Source: Patescibacteria group bacterium
GTDB taxonomy: Bacteria > Patescibacteriota > Patescibacteriia > UBA2591 > JAQUPP01
DNA: 64,000 bases
Reading direction: 5' to 3'
NCBI GenBank assembly: GCA_028716665.1
Contig: JAQUPP010000001.1
Span: 37,313-101,312, forward strand
Shown here: piece after piece, positions 2,977 through 61,119 of the stretch
Numbering within the stretch: position 1 is the stretch's first letter
Layout: every line of letters starts with the position of its first letter
Notes under the pieces: generated by a model
Database searches by the model: none
Seen by the model: only the letters and a program-made list of their open reading frames with translations
What the model was told of the DNA's origin: nothing
Translations under genes and position numbers: made by a program

Positions 2977-3699
2977 TTAAGAACGAGAGATTTTTTCAAA
3001 ATATTTCAAACCATTTTCGTCTTTACCGGCTTCCACAAAATCTTCAAAAACAACCGGAATAATCATTTTAACTTCTTCCAATAATTTACCCATTACTTCT
3101 CTGATTTCCCAATGAGCCGGTCGAGCAGTTCTCATTTTAAAAATATGCCGCCATTCACGAAAATTCGCTGAAACAACAATTTGAGATTTAATCGCCGTGG
3201 GCAGAATTTGTCTGGCATCTTGCGGCAACCAACCTGCCTTTCTTAATCCTCGATAAAATTCTTCCGTTTCTTGAAGCATTTCGGCCATGGACATTTCTCG
3301 GCCGTCAGCCAATTTAACTTTTTCATTTTCATCTTTATGAGCCGGAACAACGCATTTTAATTCAAATTTTTCCAAGTCCACTTCCGCGCCCGGTTTGGCA
3401 TAATCCACATAACGGGTTGATTCTTGAGAAATACCCATTATACGATGGCGAACCAATTCATGAGTCAAGCCGCGGGAACAATCATTAAATTGAACAATCA
3501 TCAAACTGTGCTCCATTACGCTTTCGTGCCCGAGTTTTAAAATCATTTTAACGAATTTTTCCGCGGTTTCCTGAGTTATTTCTTGAGCAACTGATTGATA
3601 ACAAGTCCTCCCCGCTTTTTCAATGGTTAACAACTGCGATTTTAAATTTTCTTTAGGCGTTAAAATAACAAAATTTCCGGCACTTTTAAGTATTTTCAT
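2977..3699 (-). CDS. thyX: flavin-dependent thymidylate synthase ThyX
   Basis: ThyX signature RHR...S motif (VRHRIMGISQESTRY) and length 240 aa. Confidence 0.8.
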   Translation of the reverse strand: MKILKSAGNFVILTPKENLKSQLLTIEKAGRTCYQSVAQEITQETAEKFVKMILKLGHESVMEHSLMIVQFNDCSRGLTHELVRHRIMGISQESTRYVDYAKPGAEVDLEKFELKCVVPAHKDENEKVKLADGREMSMAEMLQETEEFYRGLRKAGWLPQDARQILPTAIKSQIVVSANFREWRHIFKMRTARPAHWEIREVMGKLLEEVKMIIPVVFEDFVEAGKDENGLKYFEKISRS

Positions 3700-3921
3700 A
3701 CCAGGTAGTAGAACTTTGACAATTTTTGTCCAATCATCAAAGTTTTAAATTAATTAATTAATTAAATTATTTTAGAAAACCTTTGTTTGTTATATGAATT
3801 TTTTGTCCGACCAAAAATCAACAAAATTAAAGCTTTCAAACAGATTAAGTACGCAATATAGATATTACCAGGTAAAACTTTTTAGCTGCGAAGGACAAGT
3901 CAAAGTCCACTACCTGGCATA
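3698..3921 (-). repeat. structured repeat element copy 1 (about 224 bp) forming the thyX 5' leader
   Basis: Near-perfect terminal inverted repeats ccaggtagtagaactttgac ... gtcaaagtccactacctggcata. The thyX ATG (revcomp of 3697-3699) abuts the arm. About 90% identical to copy 2. Confidence 0.75.
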
Positions 3922-6067: not shown

Positions 6068-7126
6068 TTACGCTTTTAAATTTTTTTCCTCAAGTTCAAC
6101 TTCTCTTTTTTCTTTAAAATAATCACGGATCAAAATACTGATAACTGTGGCAATCGGAACAGAAATTAACATTCCGATCGGGCCGGCCAATCTTCCGCCA
6201 ATTAATAAAACGATCAAAGCCAAGGCCGGATTAAGTCCGACAACTTTATACATTATATTTGGAGAAATTATAAGATGCCCAATTTCTTGAATAATAATAT
6301 AGAGAATTATCACCAATAAACCTAAAAGCGGTGATTGAACAAAAGCGATAATTACCGCCGGAATAGCTCCTAAAGCAAAACCTATAAATGGAATCATCTC
6401 TCCGAAGCCGGTAATAATGGCTAAAATTAAAGCGAATTTAACTTTTAAAAAGAATAAGCCGATATAAGTTAGAATACCTATAATCAAGCAAATTAAGAAT
6501 TGACCTATCGCCCATCCGCTGACTTCTTTCTGGGATAATCTCATAAAATGCTCAAAAAAATGGCGATATTTTATCGGAATTATTAAATTCAAATAATTAT
6601 AGAAAGTGTGTTTCTGAATAGACAAATAAAAAGATATTATTAGAACCATGAATAAGGAAACAATCTGACCAATAGTATTTCCCAATAAAGAAAACATATT
6701 TGTGTCTCCCAGAACTTTCTGATTTAACCATTGATTTCCTAATTTTAAAAATTGTTCTTGGACACCTGCTGGTATTTTTACTACAATTGATTGAAAAACA
6801 TTCGGAATTTGATCAATAAAAATTTTCCCTTGTTCTACAATAGTCGGCCAAACGGCAAAACTGATACCGGTTAAAATCAATAGAATAAACAAGTAGACAA
6901 TTAATGCTCCCAGCCAACGGGGTAATTTTTTTCTTTCAAAAAAATTAACCGTGGGGTTAATAATCACGGCCAAAAAAACCGCGATTAAAACCATAAAAAT
7001 AATGTCGCGGATAAAATACAAAAACCAAAAACCCAAAAGAACTAAAACAACTTTAACAACTGATAAAAAATCTATACTAAAAACATTTGTATTTTTTGAA
7101 CTTGAATTATTTTGATTTTCAAACAT
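6068..7126 (-). CDS. AI-2E family (PerM/UPF0118-like) polytopic membrane transporter
   Basis: About 8 predicted transmembrane segments, about 350 aa, Gly/Pro-rich C-terminal helices typical of AI-2E permeases. Confidence 0.5.
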   Translation of the reverse strand: MFENQNNSSSKNTNVFSIDFLSVVKVVLVLLGFWFLYFIRDIIFMVLIAVFLAVIINPTVNFFERKKLPRWLGALIVYLFILLILTGISFAVWPTIVEQGKIFIDQIPNVFQSIVVKIPAGVQEQFLKLGNQWLNQKVLGDTNMFSLLGNTIGQIVSLFMVLIISFYLSIQKHTFYNYLNLIIPIKYRHFFEHFMRLSQKEVSGWAIGQFLICLIIGILTYIGLFFLKVKFALILAIITGFGEMIPFIGFALGAIPAVIIAFVQSPLLGLLVIILYIIIQEIGHLIISPNIMYKVVGLNPALALIVLLIGGRLAGPIGMLISVPIATVISILIRDYFKEKREVELEEKNLKA

Positions 7127-7340
7127 ACCAGGTAGTAGAACTTTGACAATTTTTGTGAAATTACCAAAGTTTTAAATTATTAATTAAATTATTTTAGGAA
7201 ACCTTTTTTATTTTATGAATTTTTTGTCCGACCAAAAATCAACAAATTAAATCTTCAACGATATGTTAGATGCGCAAAATATATACCAGATAAAACTTTT
7301 TAGTTGTGAGAGGACAAGTCAAAGTCCACTACCTGGCATA
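7125..7340 (-). repeat. structured repeat element copy 2 (about 216 bp) forming the leader of the AI-2E-like gene
   Basis: Same terminal inverted repeats and internal sequence as copy 1. The gene start codon (7124-7126, revcomp) directly abuts the arm. Confidence 0.75.
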
Positions 7341-8648: not shown

Positions 8649-9980
8649 TTAATTTTCTAATTTATCTTTTAACCAACCGGTTAATTCTGAAATTAAAATT
8701 CTTTCCTGTTTCATGGTGTCGCGGTCGCGAACCGTCACTTTTTTATCTTCCAAACTTTCAAAATCAACAGTCACGCAATAAGGCGTGCCGATTTCATCTT
8801 GGCGGCGATAACGTTTTCCGATAGAAGCCGTTTCGTCATATTGGCACATAAAATATTTTTGCAAATCGTGATAAATTTCTTTGGCCGGTTGAGATAATTC
8901 TTCTTTTTTTGATAAAGGCAAAATTGCCACCTTAATCGGGGCTAAATTTTTATGAAGGCGTAAAACTATTTCCGTTTCATGAACTGCATTTTCGCCGCCG
9001 GATCTGGTTTCAACTTCATCATAAGCATCAATTAAAAACAAAAGAACAGCTCGATCCGCGCCCATGGAAACTTCGTCAACGTAAGGAATGAATTTTTCTT
9101 TTGTTTCTTCGTTTGTGTAATTCATGTCCACGCCGCTGTATTTTCCGTGCCGCGACAAATCCCAATCCCCGCGATTATGAATGCCGGCGAATTCGCTCCA
9201 ATCGTCAAACGGTGTTTTGTATTCCACGTCCCAGGCCTCTTTGGCGTAATGCGCCAATTCGTCTTTTTCATGCTGGCGCAAACGCAAATTTTCCGGACGA
9301 TAAACCAAATTTTTATACCAATCAAAAGTCCAATCCTTCCATTCTTGATAATATTCATTCGCTTCTTTGGGCGAAACAAAATATTGCATTTCCATTTGTT
9401 CAAACTCGCGCGTTCTGAAAATAAAATTTCCGGGGGTTATTTCGTTTCTAAATGCCTTGCCGACTTGAGCAACGCCAAACGGCAATTTTTTTCTCATTGA
9501 TTCTTTAACATTTAAATAATTCAAATAAATTCCTTGGCAAGTTTCACCACGCATATAAGCTTCGTCTTGAGAACCTTCAACCGCGCCTAAATGAGTTTTC
9601 ATTAAGAGATTGAATTTCTTGCCTTCGGTGAGTTCGCCGCCGCAATCCGGGCATTTTTTGCCTTCAATTTTATCAGACCTGAATCTCTGATGGCACTTTT
9701 TACATTCCACCAACGGATCGGTAAAATTTTCCAAATGTCCCGACGCTTCCCAAACAATTTTGGGCGTTAAAATAGAGCTGTCCAATCCCACCACGTCATC
9801 TCTTTTTTGAACTATTTCTTTCCACCAAGTTCGCTTGATGTTATTTTTCAATTCAACGCCAAGAGGGCCAAAATCCCAAGAATTGGCCAATCCGCCGTAT
9901 ATTTCAGAACCGGGGAAGATAAATCCTCGGCGTTTGCACAACGAAATTATTTTATCCATTTTTGTTAGTTCTTTTGCCAT
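8649..9980 (-). CDS. glyQS: glycine--tRNA ligase (alpha2 type)
   Basis: N-terminal ...RRGFIFPGSEIYGG...WDFGPLG..., class II aaRS motifs, 443 aa. Confidence 0.9.
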   Translation of the reverse strand: MAKELTKMDKIISLCKRRGFIFPGSEIYGGLANSWDFGPLGVELKNNIKRTWWKEIVQKRDDVVGLDSSILTPKIVWEASGHLENFTDPLVECKKCHQRFRSDKIEGKKCPDCGGELTEGKKFNLLMKTHLGAVEGSQDEAYMRGETCQGIYLNYLNVKESMRKKLPFGVAQVGKAFRNEITPGNFIFRTREFEQMEMQYFVSPKEANEYYQEWKDWTFDWYKNLVYRPENLRLRQHEKDELAHYAKEAWDVEYKTPFDDWSEFAGIHNRGDWDLSRHGKYSGVDMNYTNEETKEKFIPYVDEVSMGADRAVLLFLIDAYDEVETRSGGENAVHETEIVLRLHKNLAPIKVAILPLSKKEELSQPAKEIYHDLQKYFMCQYDETASIGKRYRRQDEIGTPYCVTVDFESLEDKKVTVRDRDTMKQERILISELTGWLKDKLEN

Positions 9981-10011
9981 ATGACATTATTATAACGCTT
10001 TTTTAAAAAAA

Positions 10012-10052
10012 GAAAAGAGGGGCACGTCTGACCGACGGCCCCTTTTTTTATT
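10012..10052. terminator. bidirectional terminator hairpin
   Basis: ggggc-acgtctgaccgac-gcccc stem flanked by an A-run and a T-run. Confidence 0.55.
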
Positions 10053-10056
10053 TCAA

Positions 10057-10461
10057 TTAACATGGCAAATACTCTCCCTTTTCTATCTCATCTTTACTTA
10101 ATGCCTTCAAATGCTTATTCCATTCTTTATAAAAAGTTTCTTTCCCGCTTTTATCCTTAACTAACACAGACACAATCGGCCAGCCCTCTTCATCAGGATA
10201 ACTTATCTTTATGTCTTTTACTTTTGGACAAACATTCTGACAGCACTTAGTATGTTTCCATACACTGCCGGGAAACAATCCGCTTTCGTAACAAGCACAC
10301 CATTTAAGTTTAGTGTCTGAATCTGAAACCATAAGTCCTTGCAGAGTTGCACAATGCTCACAGATCCCCCTAATTAACAAATATTTGAAATCCTCCTTTA
10401 CTTGTACTTTTATAAGCCTGCAATCCTCCTTTACTTTTTTAAACCATTGAAGTATTTTCAT
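10057..10461 (-). CDS. hypothetical Cys-rich protein (12 Cys in 134 aa)
   Basis: ORF with a strong SD (aaaaaaaggaggaaaaATG) that is atypical for this genome. CxxC and CC motifs are present. No confident homology. Confidence 0.45.
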   Translation of the reverse strand: MKILQWFKKVKEDCRLIKVQVKEDFKYLLIRGICEHCATLQGLMVSDSDTKLKWCACYESGLFPGSVWKHTKCCQNVCPKVKDIKISYPDEEGWPIVSVLVKDKSGKETFYKEWNKHLKALSKDEIEKGEYLPC

Positions 10462-10561
10462 TTTTCCTCCTTTTTTTATTGAACTAATCTTAGATTATCA
10501 AAAATTAAGAATTTGTCAAGTCCCAAGATTGCCAACAAATTTTAAATAGGTATAATAAAGA

Positions 10562-10700
10562 TATGCCAGGTAGTGAAACTTTGACTTAGTCTTTTAAGGG
10601 GTTCTACCAAGCATATAAAGTAAAATTTTAATAATAAATTAACTATTTTTATAACTTTGACAGGAATAAATAACCGGTCAAAGTTCTACTACCTGGTATG
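10562..10700 (+). repeat. structured repeat element copy 3 (short form, 139 bp) forming the leader of the RmlD-like gene
   Basis: 5' arm tatgccaggtagtgaaactttgac, 3' arm gtcaaagttctactacctggtATG ending with the start codon. A TTGCCA-17-TATAAT promoter lies just upstream (10530-10554). Confidence 0.7.
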
Positions 10701-11549
10701 AAAAATAATAAACCAAGTTTTTATATTTTAGGGGCAAGCGGATTTATGGGCGGAAAATTCGTGGAATATCTAAAACAAAATAATTTTGAAGTTTCCAACG
10801 AAAGAATTGATATTACTGATTTGCCGGCTTTAAAGAAAAAATTTAAAGAAATCAAACCTGATGTGGTGATTAATTTTGCCGGCGTCAGAGCTTATCCGAA
10901 TATTGACTGGTGCGAAACTCACAAACAAGAAACAATTGCCGTAAATGTCGCGGGCGCGATTAACGTCGCTTTAGCCGCTCTGGAAGCGTCAAGTTTTATG
11001 ATTCAAATCGCTTCGGGCTGTATTTATTCCGGCACGCCGGAAACGCCTTTTAGCGAAGAAGATGAACCGAATTTTTTCGGCAGTTTTTATTCCAGAATGA
11101 GAGTCGCAATGCAAATGGCGCTTAAAGAATTGCCCGTTCTTCAATTGAGAATCAGAATGCCGATTTCCATGTATTCTCATCCGCGCAATCTGCTTAATAA
11201 AATAATTTCTTACAAAAAAGTTATTTCTTTGCCTAATTCCGTAACTTTAATTGAAGATATGTTTCCGGCTTTGGTTAAATTGGCGGAAATCAAACCGACC
11301 GGAATTTTAAATTTAGTGAATGACAATTATCTGACTCACGAACAAATGCTTAAAGCTTATCAAGAAATAGTCAATCCAAATCATCAATATGAATTAATTT
11401 CTTTGAATGAACTTTATAATATTACCAGCGCCAAACGAAGCAATTGCATTTTGTCCAATCAAAAAGCGAAAGATTTGGGAATAGAAATGCCGGCAATTGA
11501 CGAAAAACGGCTGAGAGAAATCATGGAAGTCTACAAAAAATCTTTGTAA
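10698..11549 (+). CDS. NAD(P)-dependent sugar epimerase/reductase (RmlD-like short-chain fold)
   Basis: N-terminal Rossmann motif ILGASGFMGG, 283 aa. Confidence 0.5.
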   Translation: MKNNKPSFYILGASGFMGGKFVEYLKQNNFEVSNERIDITDLPALKKKFKEIKPDVVINFAGVRAYPNIDWCETHKQETIAVNVAGAINVALAALEASSFMIQIASGCIYSGTPETPFSEEDEPNFFGSFYSRMRVAMQMALKELPVLQLRIRMPISMYSHPRNLLNKIISYKKVISLPNSVTLIEDMFPALVKLAEIKPTGILNLVNDNYLTHEQMLKAYQEIVNPNHQYELISLNELYNITSAKRSNCILSNQKAKDLGIEMPAIDEKRLREIMEVYKKSL

Positions 11550-13544: not shown

Positions 13545-13638
13545 TTAATTAAAGTGCGGACGGAGGGATTCGAACCCTCGCAGGATTGCTCCCACATGCA
13601 CCTCAAGCATGCGCGTATACCAGTTCCGCCACGTCCGC
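13545..13638 (-). tRNA. tRNA-Leu (GAG), long variable arm
   Basis: Acceptor gcggacg/cgtccgc, anticodon stem catgc/gcatg with loop ttGAGgt, long variable arm, T-loop ttcgaat. Confidence 0.85.
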
Positions 13639-13640
13639 AA

Positions 13641-13910
13641 TTATTTTATCAATGTTTTTAAATATTCTTTACCACAACCAGATTTAAAATATTTTTCTCT
13701 TTGTCTCGCTTGATATCTAGAACCAACAAATTCTGTAAATATAATTTTAAAAGGGATATATCGTTTATTTGATTTAGTTTTTCCAATATTATGTTCTTTT
13801 AATCTTTTCTCCGGATTTTCTGACATCCCAACATAAATATAATTATATTTAATACTTTTTATAGCATAAACATAATAACTTTCCATAATTTTAAAATTGT
13901 AATATAACAA
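13641..13910 (-). CDS. small GIY-YIG nuclease family protein (YhbQ/UPF0213-like)
   Basis: YYVYAIKS...YIYVGMSENPEKRLKEHN matches the GIY-YIG core with conserved R, E and N. 89 aa; the real start may be the internal Met at residue 9. Confidence 0.7.
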   Translation of the reverse strand: MLYYNFKIMESYYVYAIKSIKYNYIYVGMSENPEKRLKEHNIGKTKSNKRYIPFKIIFTEFVGSRYQARQREKYFKSGCGKEYLKTLIK

Positions 13911-13966
13911 TTACATGCGCGTATACCAGTTCCGCCCTGCCTGCCGGCAGGCAGGCACGTCCGCCT
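13911..13966 (-). pseudogene. duplicated 5' fragment of tRNA-Leu (nt 1-31) with a 20-nt perfect palindrome inserted after position 9
   Basis: The revcomp reads gcggacgtg[cctgcctgccggcaggcagg]gcggaactggtatacgcgcatg. The 24 nt catgcgcgtataccagttccgcc are identical to 13607-13630. Together with the intact tRNA it flanks the GIY-YIG gene. Confidence 0.6.
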
Positions 13967-15854: not shown

Positions 15855-15895
15855 AAAAATCCCCCGCTCTTTTATAAGCGGGGGCTGTTTTTATT
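15855..15895 (-). terminator. terminator hairpin downstream of the 672-aa island gene
   Basis: cccccgct-cttttataa-agcggggg flanked by an A-run and a T-run. Confidence 0.55.
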
Positions 15896-17909
15896 CACTT
15901 TTTATCTCTTCCTCAAAAGAGATGTATTTGGGCCGGACACGCGTCACATTGTTCTTTCTGTCTAAGGTTATTTCAGTAATCCACATTCCAAGCCATGGAA
16001 CCATACCTCTTTCTTTTAAATAAGAGGTACTTCCTTCGAGACAAGGAACCAGGAATGAAGAGATTCCCTTATAATGCATGAATATCGACACATGAAGATG
16101 TCCCAGTAATAATACCCTTACTCCATCCTCAGAATTACTTTGTTCTTCCACAAGAGTTTCTATAAATCGTTGCGAACGATACGATTTTCCGTAAGGAATT
16201 CCTCCTTTAGGATGGACTAAACGTATGGTTACCCCATTAATGGTTGTCGTCCCTTCCACGATGAATTCTCCACCAATATATTCAACATTCTTCTGTAACC
16301 GAGCAAACATTTTGACGATATTGTAACCGGCAAGAACCGAATAGGCTTTTTCATGGGAAGATCCTCCAATTACTTTGAGAGGAATTTTAGAGTCAGGCCA
16401 AATTTTCTGTGCTCTTTCAAGTTGTTCATCCGCACCATGATATTTTAAATCAAATTGCTGTCCTTTATAAGCATTGGTTCCGGTAAAAACATCGCCGGAA
16501 TGAGTCATCACATCAGCCTTGGCCAGTTTAGCTTCTTGGTAGGCTCTCTCAATTAAATCCTCTCTTGCCGTTTTATCACCAATATGGGTATCGGAGATGG
16601 AAGCAATAATCAATTTCTTGGCATGAACGCCTGTTAAAGAAATTGGTTCAAATCTCCTTGAAGTCCAATCATACTTTAAAACGTATTTTTTGGCAGCTTC
16701 ATCATGCGCTATTCTATACTTCTTTTTCTGCAAACTCTGAATCACTTCCACCACATTGCCCTTATCAAGATTAAGTTTTCGAGATAATTCTCCAAGTCGT
16801 TTTGGTCTTTCCTGTAATTCTCTGAGAATGTCTCTCTCCGCCTCGTTTAAAGGAATGTTAGTATGATCACCCGAAGATTGAGGAGTATAATAGCATTGTT
16901 CCACCTGTTCATAAGCGGTCAGGATATTGAATTCCCATTCCACATCAATCGGATTGCCACCTTTATCAAGTTTAATTGTAACAATGGTGTAACCCAATTC
17001 CGGTACATTACCTTTCTTAATTTCTGCTTCTTGAGAAGGAGGCGTGGCGCAAAGACCCGGTAAAGCGATATTAATCATATCACCAGGTTTTTTTGCCGGA
17101 ATTACCAAAGGTGTAGAAAGACCTCCTAAAATTAAGAGATTTGGCCGATGAGATTTTCTCAGCATATACCGAATCGCTGCCGTAAAATTCTCTTTCACCT
17201 TTTGCGTAGGATAAGAAACCGTGTAAGGAGAACCCTTTTTAAGATGCATGACTTTAATTTTCCATTCCCCTTTTGATCCGGTGATATAAAAATTAGCTTC
17301 CAAATCTCCTTCTTTCCGCCAATTTTTTCTATCCTGACAGAGAACATGCGCTACATCCTGAGCATGAGTCAAATCACGAGGTCCATTTAAAAAATAAATT
17401 TTAAATGGCATTTTGGGTATCTCCGAAGTGAAATCAATTTGTTCGTCAAATCCTCCGCCTAAAAAATCCTGACCGTTGCTTTTAGTTGGCTTACCGCCGA
17501 CAATATTTCCGCAATGGATAACAAAACCCATTTTGCGTCTCTTGAATTCTTTCAAAGCCAAGGCTAAAAGTTCCGGCTGGTGAGTTTTAAGACCGAAACA
17601 AGTATCAGAAATAAATCCAATCTTTATTTCTGTTCGACCGGTAGATTCTAAACGAATTGACGGTCCAACTTGAGGTTCGTCAAAAAACTTAACCTCATAG
17701 ATAAATTCTCCCTTTTCCGTTCTTTGGGTTACTTTAATGTCATAACCCTGTTCTCTGAGAGAATCCACCATTTGGACAATTTTGTCCTGCGATTTCTTAA
17801 AAATCTTCGCCAAATCAGAAAGTAAATTTGGTCCTTTCTTCACCCTTTTCAGAAGTTGTTGTTCTAATTCTTCCGGGGTAAATACTTTCAAAGCTTTTTT
17901 CGACTTCAT
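15891..17909 (-). CDS. multidomain protein with two winged-helix-like segments and two calcineurin-like metallophosphoesterase domains (first degenerate, second intact)
   Basis: The second domain has the motifs ISDTHIGDK / HSGDVFTG / GGSSHE / LLGHLHV. The first has degenerate versions ISDTCFG / HCGNIVGG / GPRD. Segments ERDILRELQERPKRLGELSRKLNL and the N-terminal LLSDLAKIFKKSQDKIVQMVDSLREQGY look like winged helix-turn-helix. Strong SD aaaaaaaggaggaaaaaATG plus a TTGACA-16-TATAAT promoter. Confidence 0.5.
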   Translation of the reverse strand: MKSKKALKVFTPEELEQQLLKRVKKGPNLLSDLAKIFKKSQDKIVQMVDSLREQGYDIKVTQRTEKGEFIYEVKFFDEPQVGPSIRLESTGRTEIKIGFISDTCFGLKTHQPELLALALKEFKRRKMGFVIHCGNIVGGKPTKSNGQDFLGGGFDEQIDFTSEIPKMPFKIYFLNGPRDLTHAQDVAHVLCQDRKNWRKEGDLEANFYITGSKGEWKIKVMHLKKGSPYTVSYPTQKVKENFTAAIRYMLRKSHRPNLLILGGLSTPLVIPAKKPGDMINIALPGLCATPPSQEAEIKKGNVPELGYTIVTIKLDKGGNPIDVEWEFNILTAYEQVEQCYYTPQSSGDHTNIPLNEAERDILRELQERPKRLGELSRKLNLDKGNVVEVIQSLQKKKYRIAHDEAAKKYVLKYDWTSRRFEPISLTGVHAKKLIIASISDTHIGDKTAREDLIERAYQEAKLAKADVMTHSGDVFTGTNAYKGQQFDLKYHGADEQLERAQKIWPDSKIPLKVIGGSSHEKAYSVLAGYNIVKMFARLQKNVEYIGGEFIVEGTTTINGVTIRLVHPKGGIPYGKSYRSQRFIETLVEEQSNSEDGVRVLLLGHLHVSIFMHYKGISSFLVPCLEGSTSYLKERGMVPWLGMWITEITLDRKNNVTRVRPKYISFEEEIKSE

Positions 17910-17994
17910 TTTTTCCTCCTTTTTTTAATGAACTGAATCTATTTATAATTATATGTAAATTCGAAAAAGTGTCAATAGTCCGATAAATATACTT

Positions 17995-18033: not shown

Positions 18034-18453
18034 TCAGCAATAAGGAAGAAAATTGCCATTTTTATCACGAATACGCGCTCTGGTTTCTTTAATGCTTAAA
18101 TGCTTAACCAGATTAAATTTTATGTTGTCAATTGTCCCCTTTTCATCAATTTTATAAATTATTCCACCGCGTTTGGCGATATTTTTCGCTTCCTTGAATA
18201 TTCCCGCCCCCCATTTATTATCTTTAAAGGGAAGAAATATCCCCACCTCGCAATCAGAAATCAATTTTATAAAATAATCCATTGCCGCCGCACTGCCTCT
18301 TTTTTGCTTTAAACGTTTCGCTTCTTCCTGATGGCATTTTTCCGCCGGATTTATAATTTCCCATTTCGGAAAATAAAAATCGATTTTTTCGAGCAATCGT
18401 TTTTCTAAATCCGTATTATAGACATTTTGCGGATGTCCAAAATATATTTTCAT
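18034..18453 (-). CDS. hypothetical protein, possibly nucleoside 2-deoxyribosyltransferase-like fold
   Basis: MKIYFGHP... N-terminus and ...GAGIFKEAKNIAKRGGII... loosely resemble NDT-like Rossmann folds. Strong SD aaaaaggaggtgaggaATG. Weak call. Confidence 0.3.
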   Translation of the reverse strand: MKIYFGHPQNVYNTDLEKRLLEKIDFYFPKWEIINPAEKCHQEEAKRLKQKRGSAAAMDYFIKLISDCEVGIFLPFKDNKWGAGIFKEAKNIAKRGGIIYKIDEKGTIDNIKFNLVKHLSIKETRARIRDKNGNFLPYC

Positions 18454-18555: not shown

Positions 18556-19125
18556 TTATCCCCCTAAATTCAAGTTGAGACCTGATTTAATGCTTCCCTT
18601 TGGAATCCTGATTGTTATTTTGTTTGGCTTTTTCCATGTGCGAATTTTAGTTGTTTTAACAGAACCAAAGCATATCATTTTTTTCCAAAAAGTATTGGGA
18701 ATAAAAATTTTCTTATTGACAATTTCTTGCATCTCAATCACCCCGTCATTACGATCTTCTTCATAGATTGTAACCCCCGAATCAACACTTACTTTCCCGA
18801 ATTTTATGCCGCCATCAGAAGTCCGATAATAATAGTAATAAAACATTTTATTGTCAGTCTCTATGTTTCCTGTCCCAATAAAAAAATCTCCTCTTGTTTC
18901 AGAACCACTTTTATCTCTCAGAGCTACTAAACTTTGTGTTGTTAACCGACCGGATTCTTTTTTAAAAGCCCAAAATAAATCCACGCTGTCATACACAATG
19001 CTATCAATGAACAACATAATGACAAAGGTAACTATTCCTGCAATAATAGTGCTGGAAATTTTTTCTTCAATAGCAACTTTCCATAAAATTGCTATTACAA
19101 CTGCAACGGCTATCGCCAATAACAT
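18556..19125 (-). CDS. hypothetical membrane protein (2 N-terminal TM helices plus a soluble domain)
   Basis: Strong SD aaaaaggaggttaaaATG, YYYYY stretch, no recognisable homology. Confidence 0.4.
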   Translation of the reverse strand: MLLAIAVAVVIAILWKVAIEEKISSTIIAGIVTFVIMLFIDSIVYDSVDLFWAFKKESGRLTTQSLVALRDKSGSETRGDFFIGTGNIETDNKMFYYYYYRTSDGGIKFGKVSVDSGVTIYEEDRNDGVIEMQEIVNKKIFIPNTFWKKMICFGSVKTTKIRTWKKPNKITIRIPKGSIKSGLNLNLGG

Positions 19126-28276: not shown

Positions 28277-29802
<1,526 letters not shown>

Positions 29803-39798: not shown

Positions 39799-39838
39799 AT
39801 TTATATATAAATCAGTTCTTTATAAAAAAGGGGGCAAG

Positions 39839-40294
39839 ATGAGTGAAAGAAGAAAATTTGGAATTATGGCTATTGTCTCTTTCTGGAGCACAGTCATAAT
39901 GGCTATAACTTTATGTATAGTCAGTCATTTCGGACCAGTCTCAACCCAAGAAATTCCATGGATTAAATTAACTCTCTCCCGCTGGTGGGATGTTCTTTTT
40001 CTACCTGCTTATTCCTGGATTCTGTTTTTAATGTGGATGCTGGATACAGCAGAAAAAAAAGTGTTTTCAGGAGCAAAAACAATCACAATCTCAATTCTTG
40101 ACGCATTCGCTTATGGAGTCGTTATAGGACTTTTGGTTGGATTCTCTTGCGGGCTCTTTGAAGGATTAGGAGCTGGATTCGTTGCCGGGCTGGGAGTTGG
40201 AGTAATATTTGGAATCTGTTTCGCATTTATTATCTTATTTGTCTTGTTGGTTAAAGTAGTGGTTAATATCCATAAGTGGCTTCTAAAAAATTGA
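39839..40294 (+). CDS. hypothetical small polytopic membrane protein
   Basis: 151 aa, 4 hydrophobic helices, SD aaggggg. Confidence 0.4.
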   Translation: MSERRKFGIMAIVSFWSTVIMAITLCIVSHFGPVSTQEIPWIKLTLSRWWDVLFLPAYSWILFLMWMLDTAEKKVFSGAKTITISILDAFAYGVVIGLLVGFSCGLFEGLGAGFVAGLGVGVIFGICFAFIILFVLLVKVVVNIHKWLLKN

Positions 40295-49054: not shown

Positions 49055-51034
49055 TTATTTTGATGTATAACCGGAAATTTTAAATTTAAAACCAAATCCT
49101 TCCGCGGTTGGTTTATATGGAATCTCAACAAATAATTGCCCTGCTTTATTCTTCTTGAAAAAAATCGGCGACCATCGATTGGCTTCCGCCAAAAGCGCTA
49201 ATTTTAAATATTTGCCATTTGCAGAATCCGATTGTTTTAAAAGCTGCAAAAAATCATTAATCAAACTTCCCGACTTAACGATTATTTTCAGTTTTCCTTT
49301 TTTATGTTGATAGTCGCATTGTCCTTTTTGTTGATAATCGCCGAATTTGGAGAAACGCAGTAAGCTCATGGCGTCCCAACCGAATTCTCCCAGCCAATAT
49401 TCTATATATATGGAAGGCAATTCGCAAAGATAAAAATTATTATATTCATCAAAAGAAAAACCCAGGGGATGAGTATTTTTATTTCTTTTTTTAAAAGCGA
49501 TTTTAATCAATTTGAAAAGTTCTTGCGGCTGTTTTTTTAAAAATTCTTTATCTTTGTGATTTTCAAAATATTCTTTGGCGAATTTTGAAAACTCTCCCGG
49601 CGCATATTCCCAGTAACCTTTTAAAGAAGGCAATAATCGGGTGGTTCCCAAATCGTCAACCACGTGCATAACATCATAAATATCCATTCCGTTTTTCAAT
49701 TTAAAAATAGCGTCGCGCCATTTTATCGCTTTTTCCAATTCTCTCAATTTAATCGCCTTATTCATCTCGTCTTCAAACTCCAAAACCATCGAGCTGAAAT
49801 CAGCAGCCATAACTCTCTCTTTGTAGGGTCTTAATTTTACTGTTTTAAAAGCCTGGCGATGCGCTTGCCTGATTAATCCGGATCTTTGATATTCAAAAGC
49901 CAAATCAATAATTGCGCGATAATAATTTTCCGATTTTTCTTTTATTTTATGGCTTATTTTAGGAATCAAAAAAACAATCTTTTTTAAATTAAAAGCGCTT
50001 TGCTCTATCATTTCCAAACTCCACCAAGGCTTGGCCGAAGCCCACCAATATTGATCACTAGACAATGCCTTATCCAATTTATCTCTGATTTCTTTATAAT
50101 TAGCGACATTTTTATCCAATTTTGAGACTAAATCAATTACAAAATAAGTAAGTTCCCACTGATGGCAATGAATCGGATTCCCCGGATTTTGCCAAAGAGT
50201 GAATGGGTGTTGTTTTTCTTTTTCCAGCCAAAAATCCTGCTCCTCAGAGCTCCAAGTGCAATCCCGAGGAATAATTTTTTCATTATTTGTTGAAAAATTT
50301 TTAATCAATTCCGAAATAAAAACTTTTTCAATTTTTTGATCCTGATAAATTTCGAAAAGTAAATTCTCCAAACCCGGACGATGATGACCAAATGTTTCGC
50401 CGTCCATTACCGTCAAAAGATAACGGTCTTTTTTAATTTCATCTCCGATTTCGCTGGTCAAAGATTTAAAATTTCGGCAAATGGCCGAGAGAATCAAATT
50501 GCTGATTCTTTTATCGCGAAAAATAATTTTCAAATGATTCAATTTTTGAATCGGATAAATTTTTTTAAAATCCGGTTTTTGCGGCGAAGCCAATTCTTCA
50601 GCGACAATCCATTTAAAACCGCATTCTTCCACAACTTTTGCCACTTTTTCGCTGTAAGCCAATTCGGGTGAAAAAAATCCTTTTGGCTGCCAATATTTTC
50701 CGAAATATTTTTTATTGGTTTCATTATTCAAAAGAATTTGCCTTTTAATTTCTTCTTTCGGCAATAAAGGCAAAAAGGGGTGATATTTAACCCCTCCGGT
50801 GAATTCAATTTGTCCGCGCTTGGCAAAATCTTTTATTTGCTCAATCACGTCTTGATAGCCGTTTTTCGCCAATAATTCTGTTAATCCGGCGCTGATATTA
50901 ATGGTAATTTTCGCCCGGGGATTAAGAGCCAAACCGCTGATTATTTTACGATAACTTTCATTGACTATTCGCTCTAAAATATCCAATTGCTGGCTTGATG
51001 GTTGATAAAAATGTAGAAAAATAGCCCATTTCAT
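49055..51034 (-). CDS. glycoside hydrolase family 57 protein (alpha-glucan branching / amylase-like)
   Basis: N-terminal FLHFYQP and DGETFGHH motifs typical of GH57. Adjacent to glgA. Confidence 0.6.
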   Translation of the reverse strand: MKWAIFLHFYQPSSQQLDILERIVNESYRKIISGLALNPRAKITINISAGLTELLAKNGYQDVIEQIKDFAKRGQIEFTGGVKYHPFLPLLPKEEIKRQILLNNETNKKYFGKYWQPKGFFSPELAYSEKVAKVVEECGFKWIVAEELASPQKPDFKKIYPIQKLNHLKIIFRDKRISNLILSAICRNFKSLTSEIGDEIKKDRYLLTVMDGETFGHHRPGLENLLFEIYQDQKIEKVFISELIKNFSTNNEKIIPRDCTWSSEEQDFWLEKEKQHPFTLWQNPGNPIHCHQWELTYFVIDLVSKLDKNVANYKEIRDKLDKALSSDQYWWASAKPWWSLEMIEQSAFNLKKIVFLIPKISHKIKEKSENYYRAIIDLAFEYQRSGLIRQAHRQAFKTVKLRPYKERVMAADFSSMVLEFEDEMNKAIKLRELEKAIKWRDAIFKLKNGMDIYDVMHVVDDLGTTRLLPSLKGYWEYAPGEFSKFAKEYFENHKDKEFLKKQPQELFKLIKIAFKKRNKNTHPLGFSFDEYNNFYLCELPSIYIEYWLGEFGWDAMSLLRFSKFGDYQQKGQCDYQHKKGKLKIIVKSGSLINDFLQLLKQSDSANGKYLKLALLAEANRWSPIFFKKNKAGQLFVEIPYKPTAEGFGFKFKISGYTSK

Positions 51035-60753: not shown

Positions 60754-61119
60754 TTAATTCGTAACATCTTGTATTCTTGCAGTAAGATAACTGGCAACAG
60801 CATAGGCTAAGACAACGATAATAATACCAATTACACCAGCAGCCATTAATTTCTTGGCTTCAGCAATTTTAGTTTCATCGCCACTTGAAGTCATCCATTT
60901 AAAACCACCGGAGATAATGATGACTGCGCAGACTAAACCTAAAAAGCCCAAGACAATGCTCATAATTCTACCCATGGCGGTAGGGAGGTCGGTATTACCA
61001 TAATTCGCGGCGCTGCGGAAGTTCTCTAAACCATTGTTCATTTCTTGCGCATTAGCGACTAATGGCATAACTAAACCCACCACTAAGACCAAAGTCATTG
61101 CTAATAAACATTTTTTCAT
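60754..61119 (-). CDS. secreted two-helix small membrane protein, VirB2/TrbC-pilin-like paralog 3
   Basis: Signal peptide ...PLVANA|QE, then ...ISGGFKWMTSSGDETKIAEAKKLM... and a second helix. Confidence 0.45.
   Translation of the reverse strand: MKKCLLAMTLVLVVGLVMPLVANAQEMNNGLENFRSAANYGNTDLPTAMGRIMSIVLGFLGLVCAVIIISGGFKWMTSSGDETKIAEAKKLMAAGVIGIIIVVLAYAVASYLTARIQDVTN

Follow-up and report, generated by a model that had tools for sequence, protein, structure and literature searches.

A cysteine-rich orphan gene in a strain-variable slot of a Patescibacteria genome, with a putative motif beside its ribosome-binding site

Moron-like accessory genes, with mosaic junctions at gene borders, are found in phages and in bacterial variable loci, and integrons hold gene cassettes behind a fixed promoter with the help of an attC site and an intI integrase. 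In the leader of phage T7 gene 10, the 'epsilon' motif (UUAACUUUA) acts as a translational enhancer beside the Shine-Dalgarno sequence (SD). Here, we describe a locus that invites comparison with all three, in a 64,000-nucleotide stretch of a Patescibacteria (candidate phyla radiation, CPR) genome (contig JAQUPP010000001.1, positions 37,313 to 101,312; hereafter the window). Its subject is a gene for a 134-aa Cys/His-rich orphan protein, which we call Cys134, situated between an RmlD-like gene and the glycyl-tRNA synthetase gene glyS. The original prediction for this DNA drew attention to a near-identical leader on a 672-aa phosphoesterase gene 7.4 kb away, and proposed that both genes share a foreign origin or a transposable promoter module.

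On balance, we favour a reading in which Cys134 is a monocistronic accessory orphan in a strain-variable expression slot, its leader containing a recurrent motif close to the ribosome-binding site (RBS), and in which neither a mobile leader cassette nor a foreign 672-aa gene is involved. The slot resembles morons in that a small open reading frame (ORF) with its own promoter and terminator is replaced in some strains, with boundaries at ORF borders and one phage-associated occupant; it departs from them in its chromosomal housekeeping surroundings, with no prophage or adjacent phage genes and no viral relative of Cys134 found. As in an integron, interchangeable ORFs stand downstream of a fixed promoter and leader, but no attC-like site, integrase or array was seen, the junctions are A-runs and the unit has its own terminator.

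An exchangeable gene behind a retained leader

The Cys134 unit and its divergent neighbour contain the following features, where L011 and L056 are the corresponding loci of two sister strains.

10057..10461 (−), coding sequence of Cys134 (from the ORF list, homologues and substitution rates)
10514..10519 (−), −35 hexamer TTGACA of the predicted Cys134 promoter (direct reading; identical in L011 and L056)
10492..10500 (−), extended −10 element TGaTAATCT, separated from the −35 by a 16-nt spacer (hexamer weak, 3/6; kept in L011 and L056)
10462..10490 (−), Cys134 leader AGATTAGTTCAATAAAAAAAGGAGGAAAA, with the AGTTCAAT motif at 10478–10485, an A7 run and the SD GGAGG at 10466–10470
10005..10042 (−), intrinsic terminator GGGGCCGTCGGTCAGACGTGCCCC followed by a T-run (fold −21.2 kcal/mol)
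10529..10556 (+), divergent promoter TTGCCA-16-TATAAT of the RmlD-like gene (11/12 consensus; about 10 nt from the Cys134 −35)

The Cys134 promoter, TTGACA-16-TAATCT with an upstream TG, falls below the threshold of a consensus scan, and the SD lies 4 nt ahead of the first ATG. A sigma-70-type promoter at this position would start the transcript near 10485, giving a 5' untranslated region (UTR) of about 24–30 nt with a strong SD. Because the gene has its own promoter-like site and SD, and a terminator hairpin with a T-run follows its stop codon, we regard the unit as monocistronic.

Comparison with related loci showed that the content of this slot varies between strains while its borders stay. 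In L011, a close relative with the same layout (glyS 95.5% and RmlD-like gene 90.5% identical to the window), the match to the window runs from the start of the RmlD-like gene through the promoter and leader to ATGAAA, and resumes at the stop codon to continue through the terminator into glyS; between these two stretches, an unrelated 180-codon ORF (ORF180) stands in place of Cys134. The same leader, ORF180 and terminator are present in L056, which comes from another sample and has, upstream of the slot, a 123-aa CxxC...CxxC ORF (80–451) where the window has the RmlD-like gene. Two further loci, L001 and L002, keep Cys134 and its terminator, and their identity to the window ends just upstream of the SD, where a same-strand ORF ends. 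The terminator is thus retained behind both Cys134 (L001) and ORF180 (L011, L056), and the slot is a strain-variable accessory locus with three contents across the window, L011/L056 and L001/L002.

The form of the SD tracks the ORF, being GGAGG-AAAA with Cys134, in L001 too, and GGGGG-TAAAA with ORF180, which puts the exchange junctions inside the A-run/SD on the 5' side and at the stop codon/A-run on the 3' side. No attC-like imperfect palindrome was seen at these junctions, which are plain A-runs, and no integrase was seen in the window neighbourhood. The family to which the N-terminal domain of ORF180 belongs comprises over 150 small proteins, and the two ORF180 relatives that were sampled (P0018 and P0023) have a phage-like setting, in runs of small ORFs that overlap one another and include Pyr_excise, PDDEXK and SAM-lyase genes. 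Since the leader is kept while the ORF is exchanged, the leader is the resident and the ORF the visitor; at this site between the RmlD-like gene and glyS, replacement would affect the ORF and leave promoter, leader and terminator in place.

Three observations concern the flanks. The 123-aa protein of L056 contains two CxxC pairs and has a weak rubredoxin-like zinc-ribbon match; L001 holds, at 2–124, the Cys-containing C-terminus of an uncharacterised ORF, another occupant upstream of glyS; and the SD AAAGGAGGAAAAATG is carried by or adjoins both of these ORFs. In L011, the promoter of the RmlD-like gene lies 6 nt before the ATG, which is a leaderless layout.

The leader match and a motif next to the Shine-Dalgarno sequence

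The second gene of the leader pair, a further instance of the motif discussed below and the end of the 16S rRNA are located as follows.

15891..17909 (−), 672-aa winged-helix and calcineurin-like metallophosphoesterase gene (Pfam and PHROG matches; orthologues and synteny)
17948..17975 (−), consensus promoter TTGACA-16-TATAAT of the 672-aa gene (12/12)
17910..17940 (−), leader of the 672-aa gene, AGATTCAGTTCATTAAAAAAAGGAGGAAAAA, with AGTTCATT at 17927–17934 and the SD at 17915–17919
39813..39834 (+), third instance of the motif in the window, CAGTTCTTTATAAAAAAGGGGG, before a 151-aa orphan ORF (orf151) at 39839–40294
28278–28295 (−), 3' end of the 16S rRNA, reading ...GGAACACCUCAUUU, with the tail CACCUCAUUU

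The reported leader likeness is real: AGATTAGTTCAATAAAAAAAGGAGGAAAA-ATG and AGATTCAGTTCATTAAAAAAAGGAGGAAAAA-ATG agree in 28 of 30 aligned columns, and the alignment of AGATT-AGTTCAATAAAAAAAGGAGGAAAA with AGATTCAGTTCATTAAAAAAAGGAGGAAAA contains one gap and one mismatch, the 672-aa gene having one extra A before its ATG. The distance between the two genes was also correctly given (7448 nt). The similarity extends beyond the A-run and GGAGG, with 12 of 14 nt matching there (about 12–13 nt identical). Further upstream it stops: the promoter spacers are unrelated, and the rank of the pair drops to 815 of 1485 once the last 22 nt are removed. The TTGACA promoters proposed for both genes stand as far as the hexamer goes, the full 12/12 consensus being confined to the 672-aa gene. 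When the 100-nt upstream regions of the window are compared pairwise (1485 pairs), the leader pair ranks fourth, below three pairs made by copies of a miniature inverted-repeat transposable element (MITE) described in the last section.

A census covered the window together with every Patescibacteria locus fetched (726 kb over the two strands) and took each AAGG[AG]GG followed within 3–9 nt by a start codon and an ORF of at least 45 codons. AGTTC was found 7–9 nt before the SD in the Cys134/ORF180 slot, the 672-aa gene, orf151 and a small ORF on L007, and a motif search for leader copies returned one more instance, in another Patescibacteria metagenome-assembled genome (MAG; L003). With an AGTTC background of 7.5e-4 per position, 0.06 cases would be expected, compared with four independent ones among about 26 SD-bearing genes, a post hoc P of ~4e-7; because the first two cases defined the motif, a fairer figure, estimated from the two extra cases, is ~1e-3. 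The motif keeps a constant distance to the SD and a varying distance to the −10, which points to a role at the RNA level near the ribosome-binding site. The leader likeness is most plausibly explained by two occurrences of a recurrent RBS-proximal motif, AGTTCWWT–A6-7–GGRGG–N4-6–start, which appears to accompany a minority of genes with their own promoter and a strong SD, and which probably acts on translation initiation. The block of AGTTCWWT, A-run and SD would then promote initiation. In this respect it resembles T7 epsilon, both being short and U/A-rich and both preceding the strong SD of unrelated genes at a constant spacing; it differs in that no complementarity of AGUUCWWU to the host's own 16S rRNA was found, and its effect on translation is a prediction. 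In viral contigs the leader motif is not enriched, occurring in one phage locus (six related contigs) and one other. As a separate candidate, a hairpin sequestering the start codon (UUCAUU/AAUGAA) was rejected, as it appeared in the minimum-energy fold of one leader only, was weak and showed no covariation.

The window contains a bacterial 16S rRNA, tmRNA and housekeeping genes at a GC content of 35%, and a crude longest-ORF census placed GGAGG upstream of only 5 of 55 window ORFs, four of which are hypothetical genes with AAAGGAGG; most SD-bearing window genes are orphans. Several window genes are leaderless or near-leaderless in layout, with a −10 box 6–9 nt ahead of the ATG (for example 9978–9994, 10551–10565 and upstream of 49055–51034). 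As the 16S rRNA ends in ...GGAACACCUCAUUU, its anti-SD is CCUCA and not CCUCC. Literature searches on CPR bacteria returned nothing about SD use, leaderless mRNAs or MITEs.

Chance resemblance, in which two AT-rich leaders with an identical strong-RBS plan (A-run, GGAGG, A-rich spacer, ATG AA) agree by accident at about 12 extra bases, is the explanation that survives best beside the motif, and we consider it unlikely. In its favour, the A-run and SD make up over half of the match, the pair score of 24 is just above those of other SD-bearing pairs (22 and 21), the original prediction came from a scan of 64 kb for anything striking, and the orthologous Cys134 locus L001 lacks the extra bases. 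The shared 14-mer also recurs, within two edits, at five other sites in the 128 kb of the window's two strands; this same frequency, however, gives an in-register chance of ~1e-4 per pair, or ~2e-3 over the 15 SD-bearing pairs, and AGTTC recurs at the same offset before further unrelated genes (orf151, the L007 small ORF and L003).

Alternatively, a leader of about 30 nt may have been duplicated or converted between the two loci recently, so that the likeness would reflect common descent and imply no function. The high identity over 30 nt, which includes an AGATT outside the wider motif, fits such copying, as does the distribution of the slot leader, present in the window, L011 and L056 but not in L001 and hence young. 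A further point for copying is that the orthologues of the 672-aa gene show no more than a loose GTTNTTTAC version. Two indels and a mismatch within 33 nt, the lack of flanking identity and the independent motif instances in other genomes all speak against it, nor is there a nearer relative of the 672-aa locus by which to date its leader, and we find recent copying rather improbable.

Very improbable, finally, is the originally proposed transposable or horizontally acquired promoter-RBS cassette with both genes foreign, which for the 672-aa gene is largely refuted. The 672-aa protein has 10 relatives at 23–65% identity, and the gene order cca, X, rluD, gmk, rplS, in which it occupies position X, is common to four contigs from other Patescibacteria (L004, L005, L006 and L007), where its orthologues are 46–65% identical. 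Each of these orthologues has its own TTGACA promoter and AAGGAGG, with another leader between them. The supposed genomic island around this gene thus dissolves into conserved synteny with normal GC, GC3 and codon use: the z-scores of the two genes are +0.2 and +1.0 for GC, +0.6 and +0.3 for GC3 and −1.35 and −1.2 for codon use, so that neither gene departs by more than 1 sd from the window mean in GC or GC3. Vertical inheritance and conservation within the lineage, not a foreign origin, describe the 672-aa gene.

For a cassette, one may cite the strain-variable slot, occupied in sister strains by a gene from a phage-associated family, the prevalence of orphans among SD-bearing genes, and an SD that fits the canonical anti-SD better than that of the host. 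Against it, besides the synteny and composition of the 672-aa gene, neither leader is flanked by inverted or direct repeats, target duplications or a recombinase, and a repeat search returned only the 30–35-nt leader itself. No case was seen of the module at a new site with an empty site in relatives: L011 and L056 have the leader in place before a different ORF, and L001 retains the ORF behind a different leader. The element that stays is the leader and the one replaced is the ORF, Cys134 has no relatives in viral contigs, and the motif is not enriched there. What remains of the cassette idea is that the Cys134 locus behaves like an expression-cassette site; the leader does not travel between genes.

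Two small ORFs at 18034–18453 (139 aa) and 18556–19125 (189 aa), both on the (−) strand, lie between cca and the 672-aa gene and are not found at that position in L004–L007. Each has AAAAAGGAGG and its own terminator, and the 189-aa ORF matches phrog_8077, whose function is unassigned in PHROGs.

The preferred reading of slot and motif can be extended into a broader proposal, to which we give little credence. Promoter, AGTTCWWT/A-run leader and A-run/terminator might form a fixed 'expression socket', into which promoterless SD-ORF units, some of them phage-derived, would be swapped among Patescibacteria strains by recombination at both A-tract junctions, in an integron-like manner without attC or a known integrase; AGTTCWWT would then be a lineage-specific translation enhancer that offsets the degenerate anti-SD (CCUCA).

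Cys134 as a gene and protein

Exact protein entries at NCBI, with the locus tags PHE59_00885 and PHE59_00940, come from a MAG named 'Patescibacteria group bacterium' and lie on a 640-kb contig. The 134-aa Cys-rich ORF of the original prediction was confirmed at 10057–10461 (−), with nine Cys (C14, 34, 37, 55, 57, 73, 74, 78, 134) in place of the 12 first counted. Besides the NCBI copy, two full-length homologues were found (85% and 75% identity), and a word-indexed search of 5.8 billion clusters returned no more. All three homologues (75–100% identity) are full length with identical start and SD, and the frame is intact throughout, even in one homologue with two in-frame insertions. Eight Cys (34, 37, 55, 57, 73, 74, 78, 134), H70 and H117 are invariant.

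A coding signal is also evident from substitution rates. Relative to L001, Cys134 has a synonymous divergence (dS) of 0.33 and a nonsynonymous divergence (dN) of 0.072, a dN/dS of 0.22, with 0.32 over codons 1–43; for the adjoining glyS, dN/dS is 0.006 at similar dS. The sequence evidence thus makes Cys134 a genuine, fast-evolving orphan coding gene. NCBI annotates only its last 91 codons (PHE59_00940, start at M44, 91 aa); we favour the 134-aa start because conservation, dN/dS and the SD support it, no SD comparable to that of the first ATG being found before M44. That the ORF encodes no functional protein, or only this 91-aa part, is scarcely credible: the NCBI start, the existence of only three near-identical sequences and the poor structure models would agree with it, but not the dN/dS of both the whole ORF and its first 43 codons, the invariance of C34 and C37 ahead of M44, or the frame and start preserved through two insertions.

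As originally noted, the protein has no obvious family. No match was obtained in Pfam (E up to 10), PHROGs, PADLOC or a PDB profile search; IMG/VR viral contigs contain no relative; and no paralogue was found in the window or fetched loci, Cys134 being unrelated to the 123-aa ORF of L056 and to the upstream ORF of L001. In an exhaustive profile (HMM) search of 1.84 billion representatives, the hits were confined to the protein's cluster and P0004, a 2769-aa repeat protein with eight weak matching stretches and no common Cys pattern, which we judged spurious.

The N-terminus is charged rather than hydrophobic, without a signal peptide, and the protein combines CxxC, CxC, HxxCCxxxCP and a C-terminal Cys. 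It is reminiscent of Cys4 zinc-ribbon and treble-clef proteins in being small and predicted cytoplasmic, with a single CxxC knuckle (C34, C37) and a second Cys pair 17 residues later. It differs from them in that this second pair is CxC, in its extra HxxCCxxxCP cluster and invariant C-terminal Cys, and in the absence of any Pfam, PDB or zinc-ribbon profile match, the structure models being unreliable. Judging from the Cys/His pattern, the likeliest identity of Cys134 is that of a small protein of the cytoplasm that binds metal (Zn or Fe-S), and its role would be accessory and dispensable.

Several points weigh against the overall reading proposed here. The Cys134 transcription unit is drawn from sequence, its promoter and start being predictions, and the function of the protein is read solely from its Cys/His pattern. 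AlphaFold2 models are poor, with a predicted local distance difference test score (pLDDT) of 35 from a three-sequence alignment and 52 from the single sequence, and the two runs contradict each other in secondary structure. The motif test was post hoc and made on loci totalling 360 kb, the majority of which had been fetched for another purpose, and AGTTCWWT showed neither a consistent RNA structure nor complementarity to 16S rRNA. The GGAGG leaders, moreover, form only 4 bp with their own 16S tail CACCUCAUUU (−6.2 kcal/mol), compared with −11.6 kcal/mol for a canonical tail.

Neighbouring elements and implications

The three upstream pairs that score above the leader pair arise from a leader ending in ...GTCAAAGTTCTACTACCTGGTATG, present on thyX (2977–3699), an AI-2E transporter gene (6068–7126) and the RmlD-like gene (10698–11549). 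These leaders are copies of a MITE.

10566..10696 (+), MITE copy of 131 nt forming the whole 5' UTR of the RmlD-like gene, between duplicated TATG at 10562–10565 and 10697–10700; not part of the Cys134 unit
3701–3917 (−) and 7128–7336 (−), further MITE copies in the window, forming the leaders of thyX and the AI-2E transporter gene

The ends of the element are 20-nt inverted repeats, CCAGGTAGTGrAACTTTGAC (CCAGGTAGTGAAACTTTGAC) ... GTCAAAGTTCTACTACCTGG, with 19 pairs and a constant A·C mismatch, flanked by duplicated TATG. The exact 20-mer occurs in 48 metagenome contigs (loci L008–L055) and was not found in viral contigs. A target-site duplication (TSD) of 3–5 bp accompanies 43 of the 49 copies that have both ends, and is 4 bp long in the window copies. 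Sizes range from 61 to 217 nt in two classes. The 25 short copies (61–88 nt) lie before −35 boxes (TSD TTGA), before SDs (TSD AAG or AGGA) or elsewhere, and of the 24 long copies (121–217 nt), 21 have a TATG TSD and lie directly before real ORFs, exactly on their start codons. Reciprocal filled and empty sites were observed: the start of the RmlD-like gene holds the element in the window and is empty in L011 (TATAAT-aaaga-TATG, a leaderless promoter), and at glyS the situation is reversed, the start being unoccupied in the window and occupied in L011 by an element with a nearly identical interior. Inverted ends, TSDs, copy number and these reciprocal sites together identify a MITE family. It is apparently undescribed, as no Rfam family, paper or sequence match was found, and no autonomous partner with the same ends and a transposase was present among the fetched loci.

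As RNA, the copy before the RmlD-like gene folds with a closing stem of 24 bp whose end falls on the start codon (−38.3 kcal/mol, z −4.4), and the duplicated ATG of the long form opens a mini-ORF, MPGSETLT or MPGSGL. Correia repeat-enclosed elements (CREE), which are Neisseria MITEs, are comparable in being short and non-coding with inverted ends and a TSD, inserted in 5' regions, co-transcribed and folded into long hairpins; the present family differs in sequence and phylum, in a TSD of 4 bp rather than TA, and in the exact placement of its long form on TATG start codons. According to one paper (PMC2649163), Correia elements are able to generate promoters, and RNase III can bind or cleave them. 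By analogy, we conjecture that the long form may be tolerated on start codons through processing of its stem by an RNase III-type enzyme, and, as a further conjecture, that translation of the mini-ORF may open the stem.

Elsewhere in the window, an Rfam 15 scan at gathering score returned rRNA, tRNA and tmRNA only, with nothing in the leader or intergenic region, and a scan at E up to 10 over 10440–10720 gave no credible match. An 81-aa GIY-YIG nuclease ORF at 13641–13886 (Pfam E = 1e-14), within 13554–13950 (−), lies directly upstream of tRNA-Leu(GAG), and upstream of it is a duplicated 5' half of that tRNA, with an exact 23-nt repeat (13608–13630/13914–13936), the copy being broken by a GC-rich palindrome; the arrangement suggests that a small insertion of homing type restored the tRNA gene. 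At 60754–61119 (−), a partial SD (GAGG) precedes a gene for a 121-aa type IV secretion pilin-like (TrbC/VirB2) protein. The glycyl-tRNA synthetase (8649–9980, −) contains a Cys4 zinc-ribbon-like insertion at residues ~89–123, with sub-threshold DUF7129 and HypA matches.

By itself, the Cys134 finding is modest, being one more lineage-restricted orphan in a variable locus, and it adds a new conserved Cys8His2 protein family for work on metal binding. The start-codon MITE may be of more interest than Cys134 to specialists in mobile elements and translation initiation. For CPR biology, the slot offers a handle in the form of precise ORF exchange between a retained leader and a retained terminator, and the motif, in a lineage with a seemingly degenerate 16S anti-SD and few SDs, bears on how reduced ribosomes choose their start sites.

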